31,556 nt of DNA from a virus. Taxonomy: Duplodnaviria; Caudoviricetes. A model generated the notes under the pieces. The model saw only the letters and a list, made by a program, of their open reading frames with translations. It ran no database searches and was not told the DNA's origin. Of this stretch, positions 2,149 to 31,042 are shown one piece after another; positions within the stretch are counted from its first letter, which is position 1; every line of letters starts with the position of its first letter. Location: positions 1 through 31,556 of IMG/VR virus record IMGVR_UViG_3300031519_000134; one strand, 5' to 3'. A program made the position numbers and the translations under genes.

Positions 2149-2457
2149 ATGGCTTTTAAACTATCAAACCCTCCATACAATTGCGATAACACACCAGTGT
2201 ATAATGTAGACATGGAAGATGGCGTAATGGGTAAAGCTAATAATAATGGTACTATAATCATTAATAAAGATTTAGATCCAAGTAAAGTTCACGATGTAAT
2301 CGCTCATGAAAAAGTTCATTTAGATCAAATGAAAAGAGGTGATTTAGATTACGATGATGATTTTGTATATTGGAAAGGTAAAAAATATTCACGAGCTGAT
2401 ATGGAAGAAGGGGCAAAGAATTTGCCTTGGGAAGCTGAAGCATATAGAAAAGCTTAA
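2149..2457 (+). CDS. zincin-like metallopeptidase (102 aa)
   Basis: AHEKVH (HExxH) preceded by a GTIIIN strand and followed by PWEAEAY, which can supply the third Zn ligand (Glu). Confidence 0.75.
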   Translation: MAFKLSNPPYNCDNTPVYNVDMEDGVMGKANNNGTIIINKDLDPSKVHDVIAHEKVHLDQMKRGDLDYDDDFVYWKGKKYSRADMEEGAKNLPWEAEAYRKA

Positions 2458-15400: not shown

Positions 15401-18400
15401 ATGGCTAAAGTTCAAAATACTTTTTTAAAATCCAAGATGAACAAAGACTTGGATGCGCGTATACTACCTAATGGTGAATACAGAGATGCTAGAAATATTC
15501 AAGTTAGTAGATCAGAAGGATCTAAAGTTGGAGCTTTAGAAAACGTATTGGGTAATAAAGAAATATTAAACTTTCAAACAATTACTGGCGTAGCGGGGCT
15601 GAAATGCATAGGTCAATTGGCTGATGAAATAAACAACACTGTTTATTTATATTTAACAACTAACATTAAGGACGGTTATGTTCCAAGTGCTAGTAATTTT
15701 ATTATATCTCATAACACTTTAAATAGTCAAACGCTTATACTTGTTAAAGGCGCTTATCTTAATTTTTCCACTTTAAATCCTATATATGGAATAAACATAT
15801 TAGAAGGTTTTTTGTTTTGGACTGACAACAGAAATCAGCCAAGAAGAATAGATACTACTGTTGCAAATCCTACTGGTTTAGCCAATCCTATATACTATGT
15901 AAATGAAGACCAAATATCTGTAGCTAAATACAATCCTTACCAATGTATCGAACTTTACCAGTTTAGCAATGAAGCTCCTGACAACGCGATTCCTTACGAA
16001 ACCACAATGAAAGATGTAACTAGCAAAGCATTTCCAAACGGAGGCGTTGGGACAGTGGCGGGTGACGGAACTACTGGAACAACCACTTTAAATATATTAG
16101 CTGGAAACGTAGAAGGGGACATAGTAACTGGTAGTCCTTATGGCTCAGGAGCAACTATTGGGTACATAGCTTCTTTGTCGGCTAGCATAGTAATGATTGA
16201 AACTGGTGGCGTAAACGCTACTGTAGCTTCTAGCACTTACGTTGTACCTACAACTCCTGTAGGAAATCCAGATCCTCCGTACTTTACAGTTGTAATAACT
16301 GGAGGAAATTTTCCTACTATACCAGTGGGCTCTTCATACGACATAGTATTTAATCCAAACCCTTATTATAACCCTCAGTTTTCTGGAGATCCTGATTACC
16401 TAGAAGATAGGTTTGTAAGGTTTAGTTATAGATTTAAGTTTGAAAATAACGAATATTCTATATTTGCGCCATTTACTCAAACAGCCTTTATTCCTAAGCA
16501 AGATGGTTATTTTATGTATTTGGACGAAGATGGGTTGCCTAAAGTAGATGACCAAACAAACACATATCGTAGTACAGTTGCTTCATTTGTTGAAAACAAA
16601 GTGGATGACATAAAATTAAGAATACCTATACCTTTTAAAAATTATAACTTAGTTAATAATTTAAAAATAAAAGAAATAGACATATTGTATAGAGAGTCTG
16701 ACGGAGCCTCTGTTAAAGTTGTAGAAACGTTAGATTCAAACTTTATATTAAACGCAGCAGCAACGTGTATTTCTTCTCAAGTTGGAGGATTGGCTACATT
16801 TGCTATTACTGGAATTCTTGGAGGTATAAAAGTTGGTGACAGCGTAACCGGGCCTGGGCTAGGGTCAGGAGCCTTAACAACGTATCCAGCTAAGGTACTT
16901 TCTTTTGCACCTACGGACCCAAGTAATCCGGTTGCTGGAAATATTACTTTAGATCAAAATGTTACTATTCAATCGGGCGTTACTTTAACTATAAATGATC
17001 CTGATTATTTAGTTTATGATTATCAATCAACAAAACCTTTTAAAACATTACCAGAATTTCAAACTACTAGAGTTTATGACAAAGTTCCAGTAAGAGCTTT
17101 TGCTCAAGAAATATCAGGAAATAGAGTTATATATGGTAATTACCAAGATAAACATACACCTCCGGCTGCTATAAACTACAATGTAGCATGCACCGATAAA
17201 AATCAATTCTCCATAAACGAAATAGGAGCAACCGCTTCCGCTACTTATACAAACGTTAATAGTAATATTATTTTAGACATAACAGACGCTAAAGATGTTT
17301 CATCGGTTGTGGCGGGTATGATATTTTTTTCTGATAGCATCTTAGTTAATATACCAGAAGGCACTTTTATATCTAGTGTTGTTGCTGGACCTGGTGGAAA
17401 TCAAGTTACAATAACTTTAACTAACAACGTTACTATAGCAAGCGGCGATATAATAATACTACTACCTGGAGGCAATGTAGAGAATTCAACATCTATAATA
17501 GAATACCCAAATCATTCAATTAAAACAAACAGAAACTATCAAGTAGGTTTTGTTCTTTCTGATAGATATGGAAGACAATCAAGTGTTATACTTTCTAATA
17601 ACACAGAAGAGCTTTTAGCTCCTGGAGGAGGAACTTATTCGGGTTCAACTTTGTACTCACCTTATATAAGTGAGTCAACAGAACAAGATATATGGCCTGG
17701 AAATTCTTTAAAAGTTTTAGTAAACGATCCCATAACTACAAACCAATATAATGGAGATGTAACAAGCACTAAATATAATCCAACAGGATGGTATTCTTAT
17801 AAAGTTGTAGTTAAACAAACAGAGCAAGAATATTACAATGTATACTTACCTGGAATTATGGCGGCGTATCCTGACAAACCAACATTGGAATTAGGAAATA
17901 CATCTCATGCCGTGCTTATAAATGATAATATAAACAAAGTTCCTCGAGATTTAACAGAAGTAGGTCCTCAACAAAGACAATTTAGAAGTTCTGTAAAACT
18001 ATTTGGAAGGGTTCAAAACACTTCAGTGCCTGTCACGTCTTCAATTTTTGGAGATTCAAATAAGCAGTATTATCCTGGCCGTAATTCAGATACTGTTTCT
18101 ACTATATCTACTGTTAATGATTTATTTGACTACGATCCTATTAGCCCTAATCAGCCTGATTATTTTCCTCAATTTTATAACTTAAACTCAAACCCATTAA
18201 TAGCTAGAATAAGCACTCAAACGCAAATAGGACAAGTAGCAACAACTAATTTTTCGCCTTCAAGCGCTACAGTTGAACAAGCTGTTGATAATTTTTGGAA
18301 AATACCTTTGACTAGCATAACCGGAGAGCCCGGAGTAGGTTCTAACCCAGACTTAGTTTCTGGTAAAGGAATTCCTGACAATATATACGTAAATTCTTTT

Positions 18401-20152
18401 ACTGCTCCAATTGGTAGTAACGGTACTGCTATAACAAATGGAGCTGTTGGTGGAAGTGGAAATAGAGATGTTGTTTTGTCTTCAGGATCTATAACTGGCG
18501 GAGATCCAACTCCTGGGTCTTCTGTTACAGGAGAAGGCGTACCTCAGTACACTATAGTCGATGAATACGTTATAGCAACAAACACGCTGCGCTGTGAACA
18601 ATCTATACTTGGTGTTGTAGAAGGTACTGTTTTAACATTTACTCAAGGGCCTGGTGAAATTGAAGTAAAAGATGCCGCAGGTGCTCTTTTTAGATTGTCT
18701 GTTGATTCAGGTGTTTCTTTAACTTTTACAGAAACAATAGGAGGTTTTCCCGGTGTTGCAAATGTTCCTGGCATACAATACTTAGCTGTTTATGAAACAG
18801 AACCTGTGGAAAGCTTATTAGATATATTTTGGGAAACAAGCACAGCTGGATTGATAAGCGAATTAAATGACGCTATATTAAACGCTAGTGATGCAGCAGC
18901 CACATTTAGTGACTTTAACACTAATGCATTTACAGAAGGGCTAGTTAGCGGAGCTGCTATTTTACAAGCTCCTTTTCAATTAACAACTACATTTGGAGAT
19001 GTAATAACGGGTGGAACGCTAGTTTTAAACTCTGTTACTGAAATGCTAAATGGGGTTCTGGGTGCAGACGTGCAACTTACTGAGAACGGAGGACCTTTCT
19101 TTACGTTAGACGGATCAGTTACTGATTTTTGGACAATAAAAACAACGCCTGCTTACTATAGTGAAATATACTATTTTAATAATGAAGAAGCTCAAAGAAG
19201 ACAATTTAGATTTAACTTTACAGCAACAGTAGCAGGTCAAGATAATGTTATAAGCCAAGATGCAAATTTAGAAAACGTAGAGCCTGTAATAACCCAATGT
19301 CCTAGCGCAACTATATATACAAATATAAATGCTTCAGGGCCTTTACTTCCGCAACCTGTTAAAGGAGTTAATGGAGCAAATAATGTAAACCTTAGAACTT
19401 TGCAGTGTGATTTTAGCGTAGGTTATGTTAGAAAAGGAGTTGATTCTGCAGCTAATGACGTAACTTCAGATCAATTTTTCTTGCTAAGTCAAACTATAAA
19501 TGGAACGGATAATACAATAGAAGCCCAAATATCTATAAATACACAAAGCCCAACTGAAATAGAACCTGACATATATTATATAAGTTTAGATTTAATAGAT
19601 GGTGGAGACAATGCAACACCTTGCTTAATAGTTATAGACATGAGCTTTTTTATTCCCCCTGGTAATATATGTAATGGCAATATATCTGGAATTTGCCAAG
19701 GAGATGAAGAAGAGGGTTTAGTTAGAGAAGGGGTAACAATTATAACAATTGATTCTAATGTTACCGGCGCGGATCCAGCTACACAGTATGGTGTTTATGT
19801 TTATACTGGAGGTTTTTTTACGGACTATAGCGCATTACCAGATTGTAGTGGTTATTTTGGTCTTGGTACACCTTTAGACGAATATTCAGGCGGCTCTAAT
19901 GCTGTTATAACTATACCTAGAACAATAGCAGATGGCGCTGGCAATGTATGCGTGACAGCGGCTGGAGTACCTGATACTTGCCCTGTTTGGTTTTTTGCTC
20001 CTACGTTTAATTTAGTAGAAGCGTTAATAATTGATTCATATCAATGTAATTGCACATACGGAAACACCGGAGGCTTAGGTTGCGGAACAGGTAGTGGATG
20101 TTCATATCCTACTACCCCAGAAACAAGTTCATCTGTTTTTCAAATAACATAG
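15401..20152 (+). CDS. tail muzzle/nozzle (stabilization) protein, N-terminal part, with inserted beta domains and a Cys-rich C-terminus (1583 aa)
   Basis: N-terminal KMNKDLDARILPNGEYRDARNI and the LFWTDNRNQPRRI propeller motif, as in crAss-like muzzle / P22 gp10-like proteins. Confidence 0.6.
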   Translation: MAKVQNTFLKSKMNKDLDARILPNGEYRDARNIQVSRSEGSKVGALENVLGNKEILNFQTITGVAGLKCIGQLADEINNTVYLYLTTNIKDGYVPSASNFIISHNTLNSQTLILVKGAYLNFSTLNPIYGINILEGFLFWTDNRNQPRRIDTTVANPTGLANPIYYVNEDQISVAKYNPYQCIELYQFSNEAPDNAIPYETTMKDVTSKAFPNGGVGTVAGDGTTGTTTLNILAGNVEGDIVTGSPYGSGATIGYIASLSASIVMIETGGVNATVASSTYVVPTTPVGNPDPPYFTVVITGGNFPTIPVGSSYDIVFNPNPYYNPQFSGDPDYLEDRFVRFSYRFKFENNEYSIFAPFTQTAFIPKQDGYFMYLDEDGLPKVDDQTNTYRSTVASFVENKVDDIKLRIPIPFKNYNLVNNLKIKEIDILYRESDGASVKVVETLDSNFILNAAATCISSQVGGLATFAITGILGGIKVGDSVTGPGLGSGALTTYPAKVLSFAPTDPSNPVAGNITLDQNVTIQSGVTLTINDPDYLVYDYQSTKPFKTLPEFQTTRVYDKVPVRAFAQEISGNRVIYGNYQDKHTPPAAINYNVACTDKNQFSINEIGATASATYTNVNSNIILDITDAKDVSSVVAGMIFFSDSILVNIPEGTFISSVVAGPGGNQVTITLTNNVTIASGDIIILLPGGNVENSTSIIEYPNHSIKTNRNYQVGFVLSDRYGRQSSVILSNNTEELLAPGGGTYSGSTLYSPYISESTEQDIWPGNSLKVLVNDPITTNQYNGDVTSTKYNPTGWYSYKVVVKQTEQEYYNVYLPGIMAAYPDKPTLELGNTSHAVLINDNINKVPRDLTEVGPQQRQFRSSVKLFGRVQNTSVPVTSSIFGDSNKQYYPGRNSDTVSTISTVNDLFDYDPISPNQPDYFPQFYNLNSNPLIARISTQTQIGQVATTNFSPSSATVEQAVDNFWKIPLTSITGEPGVGSNPDLVSGKGIPDNIYVNSFTAPIGSNGTAITNGAVGGSGNRDVVLSSGSITGGDPTPGSSVTGEGVPQYTIVDEYVIATNTLRCEQSILGVVEGTVLTFTQGPGEIEVKDAAGALFRLSVDSGVSLTFTETIGGFPGVANVPGIQYLAVYETEPVESLLDIFWETSTAGLISELNDAILNASDAAATFSDFNTNAFTEGLVSGAAILQAPFQLTTTFGDVITGGTLVLNSVTEMLNGVLGADVQLTENGGPFFTLDGSVTDFWTIKTTPAYYSEIYYFNNEEAQRRQFRFNFTATVAGQDNVISQDANLENVEPVITQCPSATIYTNINASGPLLPQPVKGVNGANNVNLRTLQCDFSVGYVRKGVDSAANDVTSDQFFLLSQTINGTDNTIEAQISINTQSPTEIEPDIYYISLDLIDGGDNATPCLIVIDMSFFIPPGNICNGNISGICQGDEEEGLVREGVTIITIDSNVTGADPATQYGVYVYTGGFFTDYSALPDCSGYFGLGTPLDEYSGGSNAVITIPRTIADGAGNVCVTAAGVPDTCPVWFFAPTFNLVEALIIDSYQCNCTYGNTGGLGCGTGSGCSYPTTPETSSSVFQIT

Positions 20153-20189: not shown

Positions 20190-21647
20190 ATGGCTGGAGC
20201 GATAATAGAAGTTAAGTATTTTAATACGTTCTTGTTGAAAAAAACAAGTAAGAGCAGTGAACCTATCTGGAATGGTTCTTTTGGTATTCCCGGCGGCCTT
20301 AATGGTCTTGGTGGTTATCCCGTTGTATCTTCAACAGATACGGATAATTGGGTCATAGAAGAGTCTAGAATTAGAGGTGGTTACAACAACACAACGGTTG
20401 ATTTTGGAGTTAAAGCTTACTTGGTTGAAGACGAACCGAATGCAGCTTTTAGAGTTAATTCTTTAATATATTCAGGTATATTTAATTCAAGAACAGGTAT
20501 AAACCAAACAAATGTTTTTTCAGTTGCTGAAGATATAACTAAGTCTGCAGATCCTGTTAATGGATCTATACAAAAACTTTATGCTGAAGATACTAATCTA
20601 ACTATACTTCAGGAACTTAAATGTTCTAGAGCGCTAATAGACAAAGACGCTATATACTCAGCTGAAGGTGGCGGTACTGTTACTTCTAGTAATTTAGTTA
20701 TAGGAGTTATACAGCCTTATGTAGGTGAATATGGCATTAGTAAAGATCCTGGAAGTTTTGCTGTTTATGGATATAGAAAATATTTTTCTGATAGAAATAA
20801 CAACGTAATATTGCGACTGAGCAGAGATGGCTTAGAAGAAATATCAAAATATGGAATGAATGACTTTTTTAGAGATGAGTTAAACAGCATAGACACTCAA
20901 TTCAGCGTTGGTGAAATTATAGGCGGATATGATATACATAATAGCCAGTATGTTATATCTACACAAGGAAGAAGCGATTATGAAACACTTGCGTTTGATG
21001 AAAAACCAAAAGGCTGGACTAGCTTTTTTTCCTACAAGCCAAGTCAAATGTTTAGTTTAAGAAATAAGTTTTACACTATTAAAGAAAATAAACTTTGGCA
21101 GCATTATTCTACAGACGTTAACAGAGGTAGTTTTTACAGCGTTAACTACAAAAGCTCTATAACATCTGTTTTAAATCCAAACCCTACAAATTCTAAAAAC
21201 TTTCAAACCATTGCATACGAAGGTAGTAATGGCTGGGAAGTGGAAAGCATGATATCAGACTCCACAGGAATGGATAATAGCTCTAACTGGATAGCTACTA
21301 ATGATAGTATTGCTTTTGTTTATAGTTATTATGACGGGGAGTATGTAATAAATCCAGCTACTGGAAATGCGGTTTCTAGGGCTAATTATTTAGCTGTTTT
21401 AGGAACTTCAAATCCACCGTACCCTAGAGAACATGCTGGGTTTGATAGAAAAGAAAATAAATACGTAACAAACGTTGTCAATGTAAGCACCGCTTCTGAA
21501 GGTGAAATAATATGGGGTAATTCAATGAGTGGTATTAAAGGCTTTTATAGCACAGTGAAATTATCAACAGATAACACTACTGATTTTGGAGGTGAAAAAT
21601 CTTTATTTTCAATAGAAAGTTCTTACACAATGAACAATGGATATTAA
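20190..21647 (+). CDS. tail muzzle/stabilization protein, C-terminal-like part (485 aa)
   Basis: GEYGISKDPGSFA..YFSDRNNNVILRLSRDGLEEIS..GWTSFFSY propeller motifs typical of the C-terminal half of this family. Confidence 0.55.
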   Translation: MAGAIIEVKYFNTFLLKKTSKSSEPIWNGSFGIPGGLNGLGGYPVVSSTDTDNWVIEESRIRGGYNNTTVDFGVKAYLVEDEPNAAFRVNSLIYSGIFNSRTGINQTNVFSVAEDITKSADPVNGSIQKLYAEDTNLTILQELKCSRALIDKDAIYSAEGGGTVTSSNLVIGVIQPYVGEYGISKDPGSFAVYGYRKYFSDRNNNVILRLSRDGLEEISKYGMNDFFRDELNSIDTQFSVGEIIGGYDIHNSQYVISTQGRSDYETLAFDEKPKGWTSFFSYKPSQMFSLRNKFYTIKENKLWQHYSTDVNRGSFYSVNYKSSITSVLNPNPTNSKNFQTIAYEGSNGWEVESMISDSTGMDNSSNWIATNDSIAFVYSYYDGEYVINPATGNAVSRANYLAVLGTSNPPYPREHAGFDRKENKYVTNVVNVSTASEGEIIWGNSMSGIKGFYSTVKLSTDNTTDFGGEKSLFSIESSYTMNNGY

Positions 21648-23476: not shown

Positions 23477-26400
23477 ATGAACGAATTACAAGCATACGTA
23501 GATTCACTGCCTTCAATGTTACTTGAAGAGGAAAAAAAGAAACTTGTTAAGCAGTGGAAAATAGATAATAAATGGGGCGAAGAAAAGCCTGAGCCAGTAG
23601 GAACTGGTACTGTTCTTAAATCTGAAGACATAACATACGGAGGAGAAGCAGTGAAAGAGGTTATTGAGGCGGTAAAGACGGAGGGCGATGCAGCGGGTGC
23701 AGGTGTGGAGCCAGTAAAAACAGAAGCACTGGTAGATCTTACGGATTCAGCATCGGAAGATGGTTCATCGGAATTAAAAGAATCTAAAGAAAAAAATATA
23801 TATTCAAGATTTGACACGGATGAAGAGCTTGACAAAAAAAGAGAAATAGCTACCATGTCTTTTGGTGATAAGCTTTTAGTTGATATAAAAAAAGGTAGCA
23901 CGACTCTTGGTGAAATGATAGCTTCTGTTCCCGAAACATTATATGACATTTTTGCTTTACCCCAAAACATTTTAGCTAAAGCAACAGGTTTAAATATAGA
24001 AGCTAGTTCTAAAAAATTCAAAGAAGACAATAGTCTTGGGAATCCAGTATTAGAGTTCTACGAAGCTGAAAGCACTAAACTTGGAGAAACACAAGATATT
24101 TACAATAATGCCAATTATGATTATCAAGGTATTTATAATAATTTTTCAAAAGGAAATTACGCAGATGGATTTAAGCAATTAGCTAGTGGTATAGTAGAAA
24201 GTGCTCCAGTGAGTATGTCTATGATGGTTGGAGGCGCTGCTGTTAGTACGGGAAAACTAGCAGCTGGTAGTACAGTAGCTTTTGCTGGTCCTGAAATAAA
24301 AGAACAACGCGAAAAAAATCCTGGACAATCAGAAGCCGAAAGTATAATAAAAGGATTAGGGCTAGCGGGTGCTGAAAGCGTTTTTAGCTCTATAGGTACC
24401 GGAACAATTGGTAAAGTATATAAAGATATACTTTTAAAAGAAGGAAAAGAAGAAGGTGTTAAAATTTTTAGACAAGGTCTTATTGACATGTATAGATCAG
24501 CACTAACTAAATACGGAGCCCCAGCTTCTATGCTAGGTGAAGGTCTTGAGGAAGTTGCTACTACAATAACGCAAAACATGATAAATGGCGTGCCGGCGTT
24601 TAATAACGTAGCGGATTCTTTTATACAAGGTGTTGGTGGAGGTGTAGTCTATGGAGCGCCAGTTAATGCTGCTCAAGCAAAAAGAGCTATTAAATCAGGC
24701 ATAACTAATTCTAAAATAAATAGCGAGTTAGGTAATTCAAATTATAACAATATTACTGATGCTTTTAACGTTGAAACAAGTACGTCATCTACGGAAATAA
24801 ATATATCTCAAATAGCTGGATCTCAACAAGCTATTGACGCTAAAGTTGATAAGCAGTTAGAAGCTGGTGAAATAACTGTAGATCAAGCTAATAGTGTTAA
24901 GTTAAGAGCTAGAGAAGTTCAAGGATCTGTAAATAGATTAAAACCTTTAAGTATTAGTATAGAAAATCAACCAGCTTTGGTTGACTTAATGATTGAGCAA
25001 AAGAATTTAAAAAATACTATAAAACAAGTAGATAATTCTAGTTTAACAAAAGCAGAGTCTGAAAGATTAACTGAAATAGACAAAGAGTTAAGTGACATAG
25101 TTGTAGCCGACAGAACAGCTAAAGTAGAAAAAGGAGCCAAGGTTATAGCTGAACAAGTTGGAACTGGTTTTGAAACTTTTGATAACGAAGCTGACATGGC
25201 TTCTGCTATAGAAACTTTAAAAGAACAAGGCGGTAAGGTTGATACTAAAAACTCTCAAGACTACGGTAGCTTTGTTGTTATGCCTGACGGTAAAAGAATT
25301 GTAATTTTAAACAAAGAATCTGCAGCTGAAGACAATGTAATGGACACGGCTGGTCACGAGGTTGGTCATGCTGTTTTATTTGAAACTGTAAAAAATAAAC
25401 CCGAAGCTGCAATAGCTTTAGGTACTTCTCTTTTAGAAGAACTAAAGAATAGTAAAGATATTACATTCACAAACTCTAGGTTTTTAGATAGATTTAATCA
25501 GTACGTTGAAGATATAGATATATCTAAAGCAGATACTATGGAAGAGGTTTTAACTCTTGCTAGTGAAGGTTTAAGTAATGGTGATATAGTTTTTAATGAA
25601 AAAGCTTCTACTAAAATAGGTGATTTTATACGTAGAGCTTTAAGCGCTATGGGTTTAAATGTTAAGTTTAAAACTGGAAAAGATGTATTAAACTTTGTTA
25701 GAGACTACAATAGAAGCGTGCAAAAAGGTAAAGGTCTCTCTAAAGGTCTTGAAAAAGCAGCTACAAAAGGAGCTGAAGTAGATATAAAAATTCCAACAGA
25801 TATAGAAGCTGAAGTTGCAGATGTTGTAACTAAGGAAAGTAAAAAAGATACAGGCGTTGAAGCGTCTGCTAAAGTGCAAGAAATATACGACACGCAAGGT
25901 GAAGATGGAGCTTTGGATATTATAGAACAATTTAAGCCTATAGTAAAAAGAATAGTAGAAAAAAGAAGTGAAGCACCTAATTTTGATCGTCAACTTTTAA
26001 CAGACGAAATTGAAACAGGTAAGCGTGGAATATTTGATTTAATAAAAGAATATAAGCCAGAGTCAGGTGTGCCACTAGCTGCTTATATAAATAAGTTTTT
26101 ACCAGCTAGAGCTATTGAAGCTTCTCAAAGAGTTTTAGGTGAAGAATTTACTAGCGACGTTACAGAAGCTAGAAACGTGATGGCTGAAGAGGTCGAAACT
26201 GAGGTTGCTGCAAAGCCTACTACTAGAAAAATAAAACCTAGCTCACTTATATCTAACGATGCAGCAAGTAAGATTAAAGAACAAGTACAAGATAAGATTA
26301 AAGGCATCGATACTAAAAACTTAACGTTTAAAAAACTAGGTGACTTAGCTCCTGAAATTATTGCAGCTGAAATTGGAATACCAGTTAAAAAACTAACTAG

Positions 26401-29400
26401 TCCAACAGCTAACTTATCTAAAGGCGATGCGACTGCTATTCAGCAATTTGTCAATAAGAACGCAGATAAGTTATTAAAGATATTACCAGAAGGTGCAGTT
26501 GTAGAAGCTGCAACAGACAAGCTCTTAGGCACATCTACTGGCGTGCCAAAAGGTTTGCTTAATGCTTTTTACACTAAACAAGCTAGATTAGGTAAAGGAG
26601 CTGGACTTGCTCCGTTTAAATTAAACAAAGGAATTAGTAAAGCTGATTTCTTAGAAACTTTTGGTATTGTCGAAGGTAAGAAAGCTGAAGGTTTTGACGC
26701 TAGGTCACCACAAGCTCAAGCTTTAAAAGGTATTGCTAGTTTATACGGAAAGCTTGTAACAAACGAAATTGTAAGATCAGATACTGATTTAAGTTTAGAA
26801 GCTAAGCAAGATGTTGCTGCTGGTAAGAGTAAATCTATGGCTAGCAAAAGAGACGCTGGATCTCAATATAACGTAGATTCAAATGTTGTTAACGCAGGTT
26901 ATAAACCTATAAAACCTGGAGTTGAAGGTGTTAATGATTTAAGTAATTTTCTTATTGATGATTTAACTAAAGTTTTTGGAAAAAACGCTAGCTTATTTGC
27001 GGTTGCATCAAACTTAGCGGGCGCTGGGAATTCTTACATAGGCAGCAAACCAACTAGTGGAGCTAAAGGTAGAAAATTTTTGTTTATAAGTGATGCTAAT
27101 AAGACTAAAAGATATATAAAAGAAACCAAAGAAGCTTTAGAATCTGGACAATTAGGAGATTTAAAAGTAATAAACAATACTATAAGTGCTTTAGAAGGTT
27201 TAGATGCTATATCAGAATCAGATTTAAAAGCTATAAAGCAAGCTATATCTAGCCAAACCATAAAAAACATAGAAGGTAATCTTAAAAATAAATCACTACA
27301 CAACAAAGGCGTTAGACTTATTATAGAAAAGTTTGCTGAATTATATAAATTAGATCCTAAAAACATTAGAGGTATAGCCTCTATAATATATAATCAAAAC
27401 GCTAACTATAGTTTTGGTAGAAAAATGGCAGCTGTTCTTGGTTTAGAACAGGGTGTAGAACCTGGTTCTAAATCTTGGGAAGAACATGTTTATCAATTTG
27501 GTAATTTTGCCAATAGAACACTTGAAGCTATATCTAGCGATAACCCAAAAGTTTTAGATGGCTGGGTTAAATGGGTTAATGATAATTATTACCAAGAAGT
27601 TACAGGTAAAGAAACTCAAGCTATAGTAGATGCTACTTATTTTAAAGATGGTATTACGTGGAAAGCTAAGTCTGAAGAGCATCCGTATCTTAATGAAAAA
27701 CTAAACGAAGCTTTTAAGACCGGCGATTTCAGTGAAGTACCTCCTGCAGATATAAGAAAATACAATGAATACTTTGCGTTAAATCCAAACAACAGATCTA
27801 TAGATAATGTTTCAGACGCTGCTAAATACAATGTAGAAGTTGACGCTAAGTTTAGAGATAATTTAGATGTTCAAGCGGAACAACAGAGATTAATATACGA
27901 GCAGTTCATAGGTGAAACTACAGCTGAAAAAGCTAAGCAAGACATTAAAGCATATACAGAGTTAGCAACAGGAAAAGCAATGGCTTCTAAGCGTGATAGC
28001 AATTTAATTCCTGACGCTATAAAGTATAGCGAACCTATAACTGTGCAAAAAGCTATAAACGCTTTAGAAAAAACTGACAAAGCTTTAAATAACGCTAGGA
28101 AATTAGATCAACCTGTTAAGAAAATTAGAGTGTTTGACTTCGATGACACATTGGCAAAATCAAAAAGCATGGTTATCGTTAATATGCCTGATGGTTCTAA
28201 CACTCAAATAAACGCTACGCAGTTTGCTCAACAAGCGTCTGATCTTGAATCACAAGGCGCTGAGTTTGATTTTACTGAATTTAGTAAAGTAGTAAAAGGA
28301 AAAAAAGGACCTTTGTTTAGTGTAGCTCAAAAAATAGCAGATGCTCGTGGTACTGAAGATGTGTTTATACTTACAGCAAGACCACAAGCTGCCGCAGGAC
28401 CTATAAAAGCCTTTATGGAAGCTAATGGTATTAATATACCTTTAAAAAATATAACCGGCTTAGGTGACGGTACAGCTGAAGCAAAAGCAGGTTGGATAAT
28501 GGGTAAAGCAGCTGATGGCTATAATGATTTTTACTTTGCAGATGATGCTATTAAAAACGTTAAAGCCGTTGAAGATGTACTTAGCCAAATAGATGTTAAG
28601 TCAAAAGTTCAACTAGCTAAAGCTAGTAAAAGACAAACCTTTGATACTATCGTAAATGATATGATTGAAGACTCTTCTGGCATAGCTACATATAAAGAAT
28701 ATTCTGCAGCTAGAGCTAAAACAATTGGCGCTAACAAAGGCAAATTTAATTTCTTTATTCCACCATCTGCAGAGGATTTTACAGGGTTATTATATAAAAT
28801 GATAGGTAAAGGTAAAAAAGGAGATTCTCAAATGGCTTTTCTTAAGACAAACTTACTTGACACTTACGATAGAGCAGAGTCTGCTGTAACACAAGCTAAG
28901 ATAGCCGCAGCAAATGATTTTAAAGCTTTAAAATCAGAGTTAAAAACGCTACCTACAAGTTTAAGTGTACCTACCGGTATTGGAGGTTTTACTTATTCTC
29001 ACGCAGTTCGCGTAGCTATATGGTCAGCTCAAGGTATGGATATACCAGGGCTGTCTAAAAGAGATATTAAAGAATTAAATGACTTTATACAAAACGATAC
29101 TGAGCTTAGAGTTTTTGCTAACGAGTTAATTAAAATACAAAAAGGTAAACCTTACCCAAAGCCAGGTCAAAACTGGTTAGGTGGTAACATCACTAGCGAT
29201 ATTATCAATGATATTAACAAAGTTAATAGAGCAGAGTATCAACAAGAGTTTAGAGAGAATGTGGATATAATATTCTCAGAAGATAACATGAATAAAATGG
29301 AGGCTGCGTACGGAAGCAGATGGCGTGAAGCCTTGGAAGATTCTTTACGTAGAATGAAATCAGGTAGTAACAGACCTCCTGGGGGCAATAGAGTTACAGA

Positions 29401-31042
29401 TCAACTATTAGACTGGTTAAACAACTCTGTTGGTGCTGTTATGTTCTTAAACACACGTTCTGCGCTATTACAGACTATATCCGCGGTAAACTTCATAAAT
29501 TGGGGTGACAATAATATAGTGAAAGCAGGTTTAGCGTTTGCAAATCAAAAACAATTTTGGTCTGACTTTATGACGCTTATGAACTCTGATTACTTAGTTG
29601 AAAGAAGAGAAGGTCTTAAGATAAATGTAAGTGAATCTGAAATAGCAGACGCTGTTAGAGATTCTAAGAATAAACCTAAAGCAGCTATAGCTTTTTTACT
29701 TAGCAAAGGTTTTGTTATGACAAGGTTTGCAGATAGTTTTGCTATTGCAACTGGTGGCTCTACTTTTTATAGAAATAGAGTCAAAGCTTTAGTAGGTAAA
29801 GGTATGGAACAAAAAGCTGCAGAAGCGCAAGCGTTTGAAGACTTTAGACAAATAGCAGAAGAAAGTCAGCAGTCAAGTAATCCAAATAGAATTAGTCAAC
29901 AACAGGCATCAGCTGCTGGTCGTGTTGTTTTAGCTTGGGCAAATACGCCTATGCAATATGCTCGTATACAAAAAAGAGCTGGTCAAGATCTTATAAATGG
30001 TCGTGGTGATTGGAAAACAAATGTATCTAAGATAGTTTACTACGGTGCTATTCAGAATTTAATATTTAATTCACTACAACAAGCGGTGTTTGCTTTAGGG
30101 TTTGGTGAGGATGATGAAGATGATGATGCTAAGAAAAACGAAAAAATATCTAGAGTAGCAAATGGTATGATTGATTCTCAGCTTAAAGGATTAGGTATAG
30201 GTGGCGCAGCAGTGGTTGCACTTAAAAATACTTTAATGACCTTAGGTGAGGAACATGCTAAAAACCGAGCTGAATATGAAAAAGCTGTAGCTGATTTACT
30301 AGGCTTTTCACCGCCTCTTGGATCTAAAGTACAAAAAATAAAAGGTGGTCTTAGAAGTTTTAGCTGGAATATGAAAGATATTAAAGAACAAGGTTTTAGC
30401 TTAGACAATCCAGCTTATTTAGCAGGTGCTCAAATAGTAACTGGTCTTACCAATATACCTCTTGATAGAGTAGCTAAGAAAATAAATAACGTACGTGGTA
30501 TGATTAACGAACAGTCAGCGCTTTGGCAAAGAGTTGCTTTAGGTCTTGGTTGGTCTACCTGGGATGTAGGTCTTGGTTATTACGGAGGGTTTGACGCGGC
30601 AAAAGTTTTAACGCCTGAAGAAGAAAAAGTCAAAGAAATTGACGATATGAAGAAGTTAACTAAAACTAAAGAACAAGTTGATATGCTTCTTGATTTAGGA
30701 TTAACTAAAAAAGAAATAAAAGCTTTAGGTAAAGAACAAGCTAGAGTTGAAAAAATAATTGAATTACAAAATGCTGAGTCTAAGCCTAAAGAAGAGGCTA
30801 AGGTTAAGGAAGAAATAAAAGAAGAAACTAAGCCAACGCCAAAAGTAGAAGCAAAGCCTAAAACCGAAAGCGCTGAGAGAAGACTTAGAAGACAGTTTGA
30901 TTCTATTAAAGATGAAAACAAACCTGATCAAGTAAAAACATTACTTAAATTTGGACTGTCTAAAAAAGAAATAAGAGATTTACAATACGAAAAAAACAGA
31001 GTAGAAAAAATATTAGAATTAATGAATAAAAATAAAAAATGA
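23477..31042 (+). CDS. giant multidomain (polyvalent) internal virion protein: zincin + sigma70-r2-like + HAD phosphatase + helical C-terminus (2521 aa)
   Basis: HEVGH at 25355-25369; sigma-like segment at 25910-26135; HAD motifs DFDDT (28136-28150), ILTAR, K and FADD. Confidence 0.75.
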   Translation: MNELQAYVDSLPSMLLEEEKKKLVKQWKIDNKWGEEKPEPVGTGTVLKSEDITYGGEAVKEVIEAVKTEGDAAGAGVEPVKTEALVDLTDSASEDGSSELKESKEKNIYSRFDTDEELDKKREIATMSFGDKLLVDIKKGSTTLGEMIASVPETLYDIFALPQNILAKATGLNIEASSKKFKEDNSLGNPVLEFYEAESTKLGETQDIYNNANYDYQGIYNNFSKGNYADGFKQLASGIVESAPVSMSMMVGGAAVSTGKLAAGSTVAFAGPEIKEQREKNPGQSEAESIIKGLGLAGAESVFSSIGTGTIGKVYKDILLKEGKEEGVKIFRQGLIDMYRSALTKYGAPASMLGEGLEEVATTITQNMINGVPAFNNVADSFIQGVGGGVVYGAPVNAAQAKRAIKSGITNSKINSELGNSNYNNITDAFNVETSTSSTEINISQIAGSQQAIDAKVDKQLEAGEITVDQANSVKLRAREVQGSVNRLKPLSISIENQPALVDLMIEQKNLKNTIKQVDNSSLTKAESERLTEIDKELSDIVVADRTAKVEKGAKVIAEQVGTGFETFDNEADMASAIETLKEQGGKVDTKNSQDYGSFVVMPDGKRIVILNKESAAEDNVMDTAGHEVGHAVLFETVKNKPEAAIALGTSLLEELKNSKDITFTNSRFLDRFNQYVEDIDISKADTMEEVLTLASEGLSNGDIVFNEKASTKIGDFIRRALSAMGLNVKFKTGKDVLNFVRDYNRSVQKGKGLSKGLEKAATKGAEVDIKIPTDIEAEVADVVTKESKKDTGVEASAKVQEIYDTQGEDGALDIIEQFKPIVKRIVEKRSEAPNFDRQLLTDEIETGKRGIFDLIKEYKPESGVPLAAYINKFLPARAIEASQRVLGEEFTSDVTEARNVMAEEVETEVAAKPTTRKIKPSSLISNDAASKIKEQVQDKIKGIDTKNLTFKKLGDLAPEIIAAEIGIPVKKLTSPTANLSKGDATAIQQFVNKNADKLLKILPEGAVVEAATDKLLGTSTGVPKGLLNAFYTKQARLGKGAGLAPFKLNKGISKADFLETFGIVEGKKAEGFDARSPQAQALKGIASLYGKLVTNEIVRSDTDLSLEAKQDVAAGKSKSMASKRDAGSQYNVDSNVVNAGYKPIKPGVEGVNDLSNFLIDDLTKVFGKNASLFAVASNLAGAGNSYIGSKPTSGAKGRKFLFISDANKTKRYIKETKEALESGQLGDLKVINNTISALEGLDAISESDLKAIKQAISSQTIKNIEGNLKNKSLHNKGVRLIIEKFAELYKLDPKNIRGIASIIYNQNANYSFGRKMAAVLGLEQGVEPGSKSWEEHVYQFGNFANRTLEAISSDNPKVLDGWVKWVNDNYYQEVTGKETQAIVDATYFKDGITWKAKSEEHPYLNEKLNEAFKTGDFSEVPPADIRKYNEYFALNPNNRSIDNVSDAAKYNVEVDAKFRDNLDVQAEQQRLIYEQFIGETTAEKAKQDIKAYTELATGKAMASKRDSNLIPDAIKYSEPITVQKAINALEKTDKALNNARKLDQPVKKIRVFDFDDTLAKSKSMVIVNMPDGSNTQINATQFAQQASDLESQGAEFDFTEFSKVVKGKKGPLFSVAQKIADARGTEDVFILTARPQAAAGPIKAFMEANGINIPLKNITGLGDGTAEAKAGWIMGKAADGYNDFYFADDAIKNVKAVEDVLSQIDVKSKVQLAKASKRQTFDTIVNDMIEDSSGIATYKEYSAARAKTIGANKGKFNFFIPPSAEDFTGLLYKMIGKGKKGDSQMAFLKTNLLDTYDRAESAVTQAKIAAANDFKALKSELKTLPTSLSVPTGIGGFTYSHAVRVAIWSAQGMDIPGLSKRDIKELNDFIQNDTELRVFANELIKIQKGKPYPKPGQNWLGGNITSDIINDINKVNRAEYQQEFRENVDIIFSEDNMNKMEAAYGSRWREALEDSLRRMKSGSNRPPGGNRVTDQLLDWLNNSVGAVMFLNTRSALLQTISAVNFINWGDNNIVKAGLAFANQKQFWSDFMTLMNSDYLVERREGLKINVSESEIADAVRDSKNKPKAAIAFLLSKGFVMTRFADSFAIATGGSTFYRNRVKALVGKGMEQKAAEAQAFEDFRQIAEESQQSSNPNRISQQQASAAGRVVLAWANTPMQYARIQKRAGQDLINGRGDWKTNVSKIVYYGAIQNLIFNSLQQAVFALGFGEDDEDDDAKKNEKISRVANGMIDSQLKGLGIGGAAVVALKNTLMTLGEEHAKNRAEYEKAVADLLGFSPPLGSKVQKIKGGLRSFSWNMKDIKEQGFSLDNPAYLAGAQIVTGLTNIPLDRVAKKINNVRGMINEQSALWQRVALGLGWSTWDVGLGYYGGFDAAKVLTPEEEKVKEIDDMKKLTKTKEQVDMLLDLGLTKKEIKALGKEQARVEKIIELQNAESKPKEEAKVKEEIKEETKPTPKVEAKPKTESAERRLRRQFDSIKDENKPDQVKTLLKFGLSKKEIRDLQYEKNRVEKILELMNKNKK
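30647..31027 (+). repeat. two copies of a ~35-42 aa protein repeat at the C-terminus of the giant protein
   Basis: EQVDMLLDLGLTKKEIKALGKEQARVEKIIELQN versus DQVKTLLKFGLSKKEIRDLQYEKNRVEKILELMN. Confidence 0.8.

Follow-up and report, generated by a model that had tools for sequence, protein, structure and literature searches.

Iyer, Burroughs, Anand, de Souza and Aravind (2017; PMC5512222) proposed that polyvalent proteins are released by autoproteolysis, by analogy with the polyproteins of RNA viruses. The main text of that paper names no site: the word "linker" is absent, and "cleavage site" occurs only in a reference. In the crAss-like phage phi14:2, gp65–gp67 are virion proteins with a zincin domain, and their fused forms are described as "likely cleaved" (bioRxiv 10.1101/2020.03.07.982082); where the phi14:2 and phi24B preprints treat giant proteins, cleavage or a peptidoglycan role is proposed and no sites are given. 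Where, then, would such a protein be cut, and by what? We examined a 31,556-nucleotide stretch of phage DNA (IMG/VR record IMGVR_UViG_3300031519_000134, positions 1 to 31,556; hereafter the window), in which one open reading frame (ORF) encodes a giant protein of 2521 amino acids (aa). This protein joins a zincin-like metallopeptidase to a series of modules separated by a short repeated motif, which we call the tag. Comparison with relatives points to the zincin as the reader of the tag, and putative self-cleavage by the zincin at the tags is the best reading of the data, one that we consider probable.

Tags and modules of the giant protein

An initial annotation had described the protein as self-processing, with a zincin domain followed by modules bounded by [A/E]SK[R/K]. 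The four copies indeed stand where they had been placed (KESKKD at 25832, MASKRD at 26837 and 27980, and KASKRQ at 28619), as do HEVGH (aa 627–631, nucleotide 25355) and the downstream EE (aa 689–690). They separate the zincin, a sigma-region-2 module, a 381-aa module and a Pnkp-type HAD phosphatase. The motifs had also been expected to fall in linkers. Two AlphaFold2 models were built, covering aa 545–1135 (mean predicted local distance difference test score, pLDDT, of 77) and aa 1110–1760 (mean pLDDT 74), and all four tags lie in segments with pLDDT below 50. Tags 2 and 4 are near construct ends and constitute weaker evidence for a linker than tags 1 and 3, which are internal to a model. The features of the protein are as follows.

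23477..31042, + strand: giant polyvalent protein, 2521 aa, the last gene of the structural block
23477..25126, + strand: N-terminal region, aa 1–550; variable, linked with the zincin, tag density at chance
25127..25804, + strand: zincin-like metallopeptidase, about aa 551–776; H627, E628, H631 and second-helix Glu 689/690
25331..25333, + strand: Asp619, candidate specificity residue at HExxH minus 8; the best class-predicting column
25832..25849, + strand: tag 1, KESKKD (Ser788); in a segment of pLDDT <50 (aa 774–792), at a breakpoint cluster
25838..26842, + strand: module 1, aa 788–1122; sigma-70 region-2 fold, disordered linker and a further domain of no assigned family
26837..26854, + strand: tag 2, MASKRD (Ser1123); low pLDDT in both models, at the construct ends
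26843..27985, + strand: module 2, aa 1123–1503, a 381-aa cassette with a near-identical copy in relative L012
27980..27997, + strand: tag 3, MASKRD (Ser1504); pLDDT <50 at aa 1499–1511, internal to a model
27986..28624, + strand: module 3, aa 1504–1716, HAD phosphatase of the T4 Pnkp 3'-phosphatase type, from structure and PHROG matches
28619..28636, + strand: tag 4, KASKRQ (Ser1717); directly after the last HAD strand
28625..31042, + strand: conserved C-terminal region, aa 1717–2521; almost tag-free, holds the GLSKRD control site

MASKRD is the sole repeated 6-mer of the giant protein. The pattern [AE]SK[RK] occurs four times against 0.43 expected, a count reached by 4 of 5000 shuffles, for a pattern picked after the sequence had been seen; it is found in none of the eight other large ORFs of the window. 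When 6-mers were ranked by BLOSUM similarity with no pattern given, the tag came seventh of the eight best listed. A single protein would be no proof of the tag, and it is the comparative data that carry the case. Two other candidate sites were rejected: IEASQR (aa 880–885; ASKR or ASRR in a few relatives) falls within a helix predicted for the sigma domain, and GLSKRD (aa 1858, C-terminal region) has a spelling that does not co-vary.

Tag spelling across relatives

The relatives comprised 225 loci, reduced to 188 non-redundant giants. From the 188, a 64-protein set was drawn by requiring HExxH, a mapped tag 4 and at least 60% identity in the C-terminal region. A 145-protein set was taken from 242 proteins with the zincin motif; removal of three proteins of class "other" left 142, and removal of two more that were too short left 140 for trees.

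Five tag spellings occur among these relatives (ASKR, FS, SKLE, SKE and SKG). Within one protein the copies mostly change spelling in concert, with Ser nearly fixed. At tag 4, the classes number 99 ASKR, 22 FS, 10 SKLE, 7 SKG, 4 SKE and 3 other in the 145-protein set. The same class stands at tags 2 and 4 in 83 of 87 proteins and at tags 3 and 4 in 86 of 104. In ASKR proteins, the module region holds 3.64 tags per 1000 aa, the part before the zincin 0.16 and the C-terminal region 0.04: the tags sit only between would-be independent enzymes.

Does the tag act as protein or as DNA? If it were a recombination microhomology or a by-product of gene conversion, without function in the protein, swaps should fall at tags, and they do (see below). 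Codon usage argues against such an origin. The initial annotation had noted that the copies use different codons, and the tag serines of the window are indeed encoded by AGT, AGC, TCT and AGT in tags 1–4. Across relatives, codon identity between copies is 560/1084 (51.7%), compared with 51.5% expected by chance, and in 16 proteins the serine of tag 3 (ASKR, SKLE and SKE forms) has TCN codons whereas that of tag 4 has AGY codons. Homogenization of the tags at the DNA level is rejected on this chance-level identity, and the concerted changes are therefore parallel point substitutions, not gene conversion. Furthermore, class follows the zincin and synonymous sites barely do: synonymous identity around tag 4 is 0.69 between proteins with the same zincin and distant flanks, 0.73 between those with different zincins and close flanks, and 0.65 between unrelated ones. 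The constraint at the protein level that had been claimed for the tag is thus upheld, and a DNA-level explanation, largely refuted by the codon data, retains next to no probability.

The spelling follows the zincin

Tag 4 lies between the HAD module and the C-terminal region, some 1100 aa from HExxH, and we asked which part of the protein its class follows. On FastTree trees of the 140 proteins, the class of tag 4 changes 7 times on the zincin tree, 21 times on the tree of the HAD end and 26 times on that of the start of the C-terminal region; shuffled classes change about 40 times. The same counts in the 64-protein set are 5, 12, 15 and 24. Predicting the class from the nearest zincin succeeds for 141 of 145 proteins, and from the two flanks for 126 and 123. 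Of 96 pairs whose zincins are 70% or more identical, 95 share a class; of 250 pairs with both flanks 85% or more identical and distant zincins, 105 do. Individual positions behave alike: residues −1 and +2 of tag 4 are identical at 0.94 and 0.92 in 71 pairs with similar zincins and different flanks, and at 0.50 and 0.29 in 316 pairs with near-identical flanks and different zincins. A look-alike in the C-terminal region, LSK[RK]D, served as a control; it is unchanged in 5 of 5 SKLE proteins and in 14 of 20 FS proteins.

A scan along the protein gives the extent of the linkage. The rate at which similar pairs share a class is 0.97–1.0 from 600 residues before HExxH to 200 after it, 0.64–0.77 over the modules, and 0.40–0.44 near and beyond tag 4, compared with a background of 0.41 there. 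Because pairs at least 70% identical anywhere in that first interval share their class so regularly, another part of the N-terminal block (aa 1–550) could be the reader, with the zincin hitchhiking. Alternatively, the Ser that is nearly fixed in the tag could cleave the chain by an N-O acyl shift, as in Nup98-type autoproteolysis. The pre-zincin region fits less well than the zincin, with 8 changes on its tree compared with 4 (61 proteins), and if Ser cleaved the chain itself, the spelling would have no need to track a domain far away. We regard this pair of explanations as improbable.

A protease encoded elsewhere is a further candidate, be it a host enzyme, a prohead protease or a 102-aa HExxH protein of the window (2149–2457). 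The latter has weak metalloprotease matches, and the tag contains a dibasic pair. Yet even the gene directly upstream is decoupled from tag class (16 changes compared with 4 on the zincin tree, 53 proteins), and the FS, SKLE and SKG spellings lack the dibasic pair. An external protease is, in our estimation, highly improbable. The co-variation points to the zincin of the giant protein itself.

The zincin and residue 619

The predicted secondary structure of the domain is that expected of a zincin-like metallopeptidase of the gluzincin type. In model numbering, three strands (E20–24, E53–57 and E63–68) and a short helix precede the helix that carries HEVGH (H80–93), and a later helix (H140–157) carries EE. 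The His, Glu, His and distal Glu residues are invariant in 64 of 64 relatives, a set itself selected for HExxH. Conserved HExxH and distal Glu mark the domain as the metallopeptidase hub typical of polyvalent proteins. Its Pfam match to Peptidase_M78 is weak (E = 0.19), and Atlas places it at 0.96 with a cluster in which LPD23 occurs in 18% of members; no LPD domain is matched in Pfam. Judging from its conserved ligands, the zincin is presumably active.

Among 133 5'-complete relatives, 122 have HExxH, 1 has HExxxH and 10 have EExxH. The EExxH clade comprises L007, L031, L065, L132, L164, L173, L176, L181, L183 and L184, with the zincin at about aa 980–1150 of the giant ORF. Eight of its ten members have S[KR]G tags and two have FS-like ones, and the sequences inspected keep the catalytic Glu, the second His and the distal EE. 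The clade may represent either an active variant with a Glu ligand or a pseudo-protease.

Which residue could read the tag? Column 619, between the short helix after the third strand and the HExxH helix, predicted class best (60/64); the proteins of a held-out test comprised many close relatives and one that matches the window at 100% identity across the region searched. In the 142 proteins, Asp619 goes with ASKR in 93 of 94 cases and Arg619 with SKLE in 10 of 10. Asp619 is thereby paired with S-K-R and Arg619 with S-K-L/I-E, a charge reversal that parallels how the tag changes. The flank tree contains 12 independent pairs that differ at Asp619; a mean of 8.1 of these change in the same direction and none in the opposite one (median p = 0.008). 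The corresponding test on the HAD-end tree gave p = 0.03.

Module exchange at the tags

Breakpoints were defined as change points in identity to the window, located in the 188 giants without reference to the motif. They cluster at aa 780–799 (36 breakpoints), 1120–1129 (42) and 1490–1509 (45), and there is a further cluster at 1520–1539 (48), just inside module 3. Few fall at 1710–1729 (12), because the HAD module and the C-terminal region usually travel together. Of 142 internal tag copies in the 64 close relatives, 116 lie within 15 aa of such a breakpoint, compared with a background of 16–19%. An insert of 164–167 aa is bordered on both sides by MASKR in L205, L211 and L220, and by KFS in L215, and module families occur across tag classes.

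The initial annotation had envisaged module gain and loss exactly at the motifs. This stands insofar as the tags are conserved and mark swaps; it fails for a breakpoint at aa 890–910 and for gains of a kinase in the HAD module and of LysM, all of which lack a tag. The first of these corresponds to a tag-free disordered linker (aa 894–916; 26156–26224) after the sigma-2 domain, which is the largest swap point of the module region. The kinase is an AAA_33/Zeta-like P-loop domain inside the HAD module (L025:8738-10000, AAA_33 E = 4.5e-14; also in P0023, P0024 and others), and would make a Pnkp-like kinase-phosphatase within the polyprotein. The LysM domain is an insertion that follows the zincin and precedes tag 1 (L153:6916-7155, L079 and L221). 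It would remain on the N-terminal fragment, which hints at contact with the cell wall.

Modules and genomic context

In its first part (about aa 792–889), module 1 has the fold of sigma-70 region 2. VIA aligned 90 residues of it to sigma70 with a root-mean-square deviation (rmsd) of 2.8 and Z = 9.4, a moderate value for a helical domain; the match to SigB has Z = 8.8, and sigma factors fill the top 15 matches. No good match to sigma region 4 was found for aa 920–1115 within the two-domain model.

Module 2 is carried by L012 at 95% identity over exactly aa 1123–1502. In 14 aligned sequences, an EH pair (alignment columns 227–228) and scattered Q, HP and R residues are invariant; they look like an enzyme active site, and may resemble that of His-Me nucleases. 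The searches returned no family or fold and only four homologues of near-full length, with the structure matches of the multi-domain model filled by HAD. PDB sequence searches with two alignments of fragments of the giant protein gave nothing informative. Identification as a lysozyme or SLT domain was a weak lead (Atlas matches below 0.9) and was not accepted.

Module 3 has the HAD fold, with DFDDT at aa 1554 (DxDxT) and DD at aa 1689–1690, as expected of a Pnkp-type HAD phosphatase. VIA aligned 128 residues to 5uj0 (Z = 13.1, rmsd 2.5), and the aligned stretch stops at aa 1716, immediately before Ser1717. PHROG returned polynucleotide kinase (E = 1.4e-4).

The window holds a phage structural block on one strand: holin, GroES, terminase, portal, virion structural proteins, a crAss-muzzle-like protein and the giant ORF. 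As in polyvalent proteins, the giant gene is thus encoded with late genes, after those for terminase, portal and virion structural proteins, and it combines unrelated domains (zincin, sigma-2 and HAD) in one large polypeptide. As a whole the giant protein had no Pfam or PHROG match, and tblastn against annotated phages gave no match at 1e-3. The terminase and portal are nearest to those of an uncultured spring phage and next to those of cultured Flavobacteriia phages (taxonomy from PMC8776804). Elemovirus is 44% identical in TerL and 41% in portal; the portal of phi38:1 is 34% identical. These cultured phages have the same gene order, terminating in a giant gene annotated as structural, and a profile of the zincin matches the syntenic Elemovirus gp18, a "structural protein" (E = 7e-8). 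From synteny and this homology, we infer that the giant protein is packaged in the virion and delivered on infection; PMC7077304 yielded nothing on Elemovirus proteomics.

Some further features of the locus may be recorded. The 102-aa protein at 2149–2457, just before the holin, has HEKVH and weak metalloprotease matches. The ORFs at 15401–20152 and 20190–21647 match different parts of phrog_14478, and the second has crAss muzzle domains, which suggests a split or extended muzzle gene. The C-terminal tail of the giant protein (30676–31039) contains two related units of about 35 aa (aa 2400–2432 and 2485–2520), present in one or two copies in relatives. In L024, L027 and L057 the giant ORF is broken near the start of the C-terminal region, by assembly error or a real split.

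Proposed mechanism

The giant protein can be pictured as a chain of exchangeable modules whose own zincin likely recognizes the linker tag and likely cuts there. Cutting would yield five pieces of approximately 85, 36, 42, 23 and 90 kDa. In zincins, the residues just before HExxH line the primed side of the cleft, and under the bacterial N-end rule Ser is stabilizing. Because of this geometry and this rule, we place the putative cut between [A/E/F] and S, that is, between [A/E] and S-K-R in the window, with Asp619 reading a basic residue on the primed side. Cleavage could occur either in the head or after ejection. The freed pieces would act early in infection: a sigma-2 handle on the host RNA polymerase, a putative enzyme (module 2) and an RNA-end-healing phosphatase. 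When a module arrives from a phage with another spelling, point mutations would have to respell its tags, in agreement with the pattern observed. These steps would amount to a protease-site code, in which the zincin and its cut sites co-evolve like lock and key, residue 619 flips the charge that is read, the sites serve as cassette borders, and modules that move between phages are rewritten to suit the resident protease. We lean slightly toward this fuller account.

Several observations weigh against self-cleavage at the tags or against the code. The whole N-terminal block is linked to class, so that the zincin is the best and not the sole candidate. The zincin structures that are the best Foldseek matches are weak ones (E = 0.019, two-domain model), and no zincin is among the 50 best VIA matches listed for that model. 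The Arg619/SKLE pairing is a single clade and thus one event; a Val619 clade with FS-type zincins (L101, L096, P0054, P0056, P0063 and P0117) uses ASKR tags; P0116 has Asp619 and yet FS at tag 4; and the independent-pair test on the C-start tree alone is not significant (p = 0.125). Of 104 proteins, 15 lack tag 3 where the alignment would put it, and in 3 it belongs to another class. The largest breakpoint cluster (aa 890–919, 51 breakpoints) has no tag, and of the 298 blind breakpoints in ASKR proteins, only 107 have a tag. The 10 of 133 relatives with EExxH keep their tags, such that either the variant is active or catalysis is not needed. Elemovirus gp18 has HExxH and no evident tag, by a pattern-free test that is weak even on the window protein. 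Finally, among the cases treated in PMC5512222, P1 is processed, whereas N4 vRNAP, ArdC and TraC1 are unprocessed despite a metallopeptidase domain.

The EExxH proteins bear most directly on the principal alternative, in which the zincin binds the tag without cutting, for instance to order the chain inside the head or to thread it through the tail, and its active site is idle or works on another substrate, such as peptidoglycan. Binding explains the same co-variation, and tags kept beside EExxH would be expected of it. The LysM domain adjoining the zincin, before tag 1, in L079, L153 and L221 would suit a cell-wall substrate, as would the peptidoglycan role that the phi24B preprint, in the part concerned with it, suggests for that phage's polyvalent metallopeptidase. 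Against binding alone, even those EExxH sequences that were inspected retain the catalytic Glu, second His and distal Glu, the candidate specificity residue adjoins the active-site helix, and the tags are confined to the junctions of would-be independent enzymes. We therefore deem binding without cutting unlikely and retain self-cleavage at the tags as the best explanation.

Comparison with known systems

The traits of a self-processing polyprotein are present in part as a repeated linker motif and in part as a specificity tied to the protease, the latter by co-variation only and with one exception clade. Like the polyvalent proteins of Iyer and colleagues, this is a large protein, encoded beside virion genes, that joins unrelated domains to a peptidase with HExxH and a distal Glu. 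Unlike those described in the main text of PMC5512222, it offers a candidate site, five spellings of it and a candidate specificity residue, and has no LPD match in Pfam. The phi14:2 crAss-like cargo likewise has a zincin in a giant protein, and the window also encodes a crAss muzzle-like domain; unlike that cargo, no RNA polymerase was detected here, the cargo being sigma-2, module 2 and the HAD phosphatase. Elemovirus gp18 (NC_055853.1, 3694 aa) and related giants of Pervagoviridae and Pachyviridae stand at the end of the same succession of genes, which starts with GroES and terminase; in the giants phi38:1 gp101 and phi19:3 gp129, no HExxH and, by the weak pattern-free test, no tag was found. 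Modules 3 and 1 resemble in fold the T4 Pnkp/Pnkp1 3'-phosphatase and sigma-70 region 2, here embedded in a polyprotein; unlike in full sigma-70, no region 4 was detected in the giant protein (two-domain model).

In the openly accessible literature, we found no report of the tag motif, of a site or substrate rule for such self-processing, or of protease-site co-variation. With its candidate sites, its naturally occurring specificity variants and its swap at one residue (Asp/Arg619 vs. SKR/SKLE), the family renders the 2017 proposal testable. The tags also define the boundaries of effector modules in a phage group whose relatives are numerous in public collections. If true, the code would allow the mature injected proteins, among them a free sigma-2 handle on the host RNA polymerase, to be predicted from sequence alone.

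Self-processing of polyvalent proteins was thus already proposed in 2017; what is new is a defined, lineage-specific junction code tied to the protein's own zincin. In eukaryotic RNA viruses, polyproteins also have an embedded protease and a repeated junction motif that is spelled differently from lineage to lineage. Unlike them, the present protein belongs to a DNA phage, its peptidase is a zinc enzyme, and its junctions double as points of module exchange.

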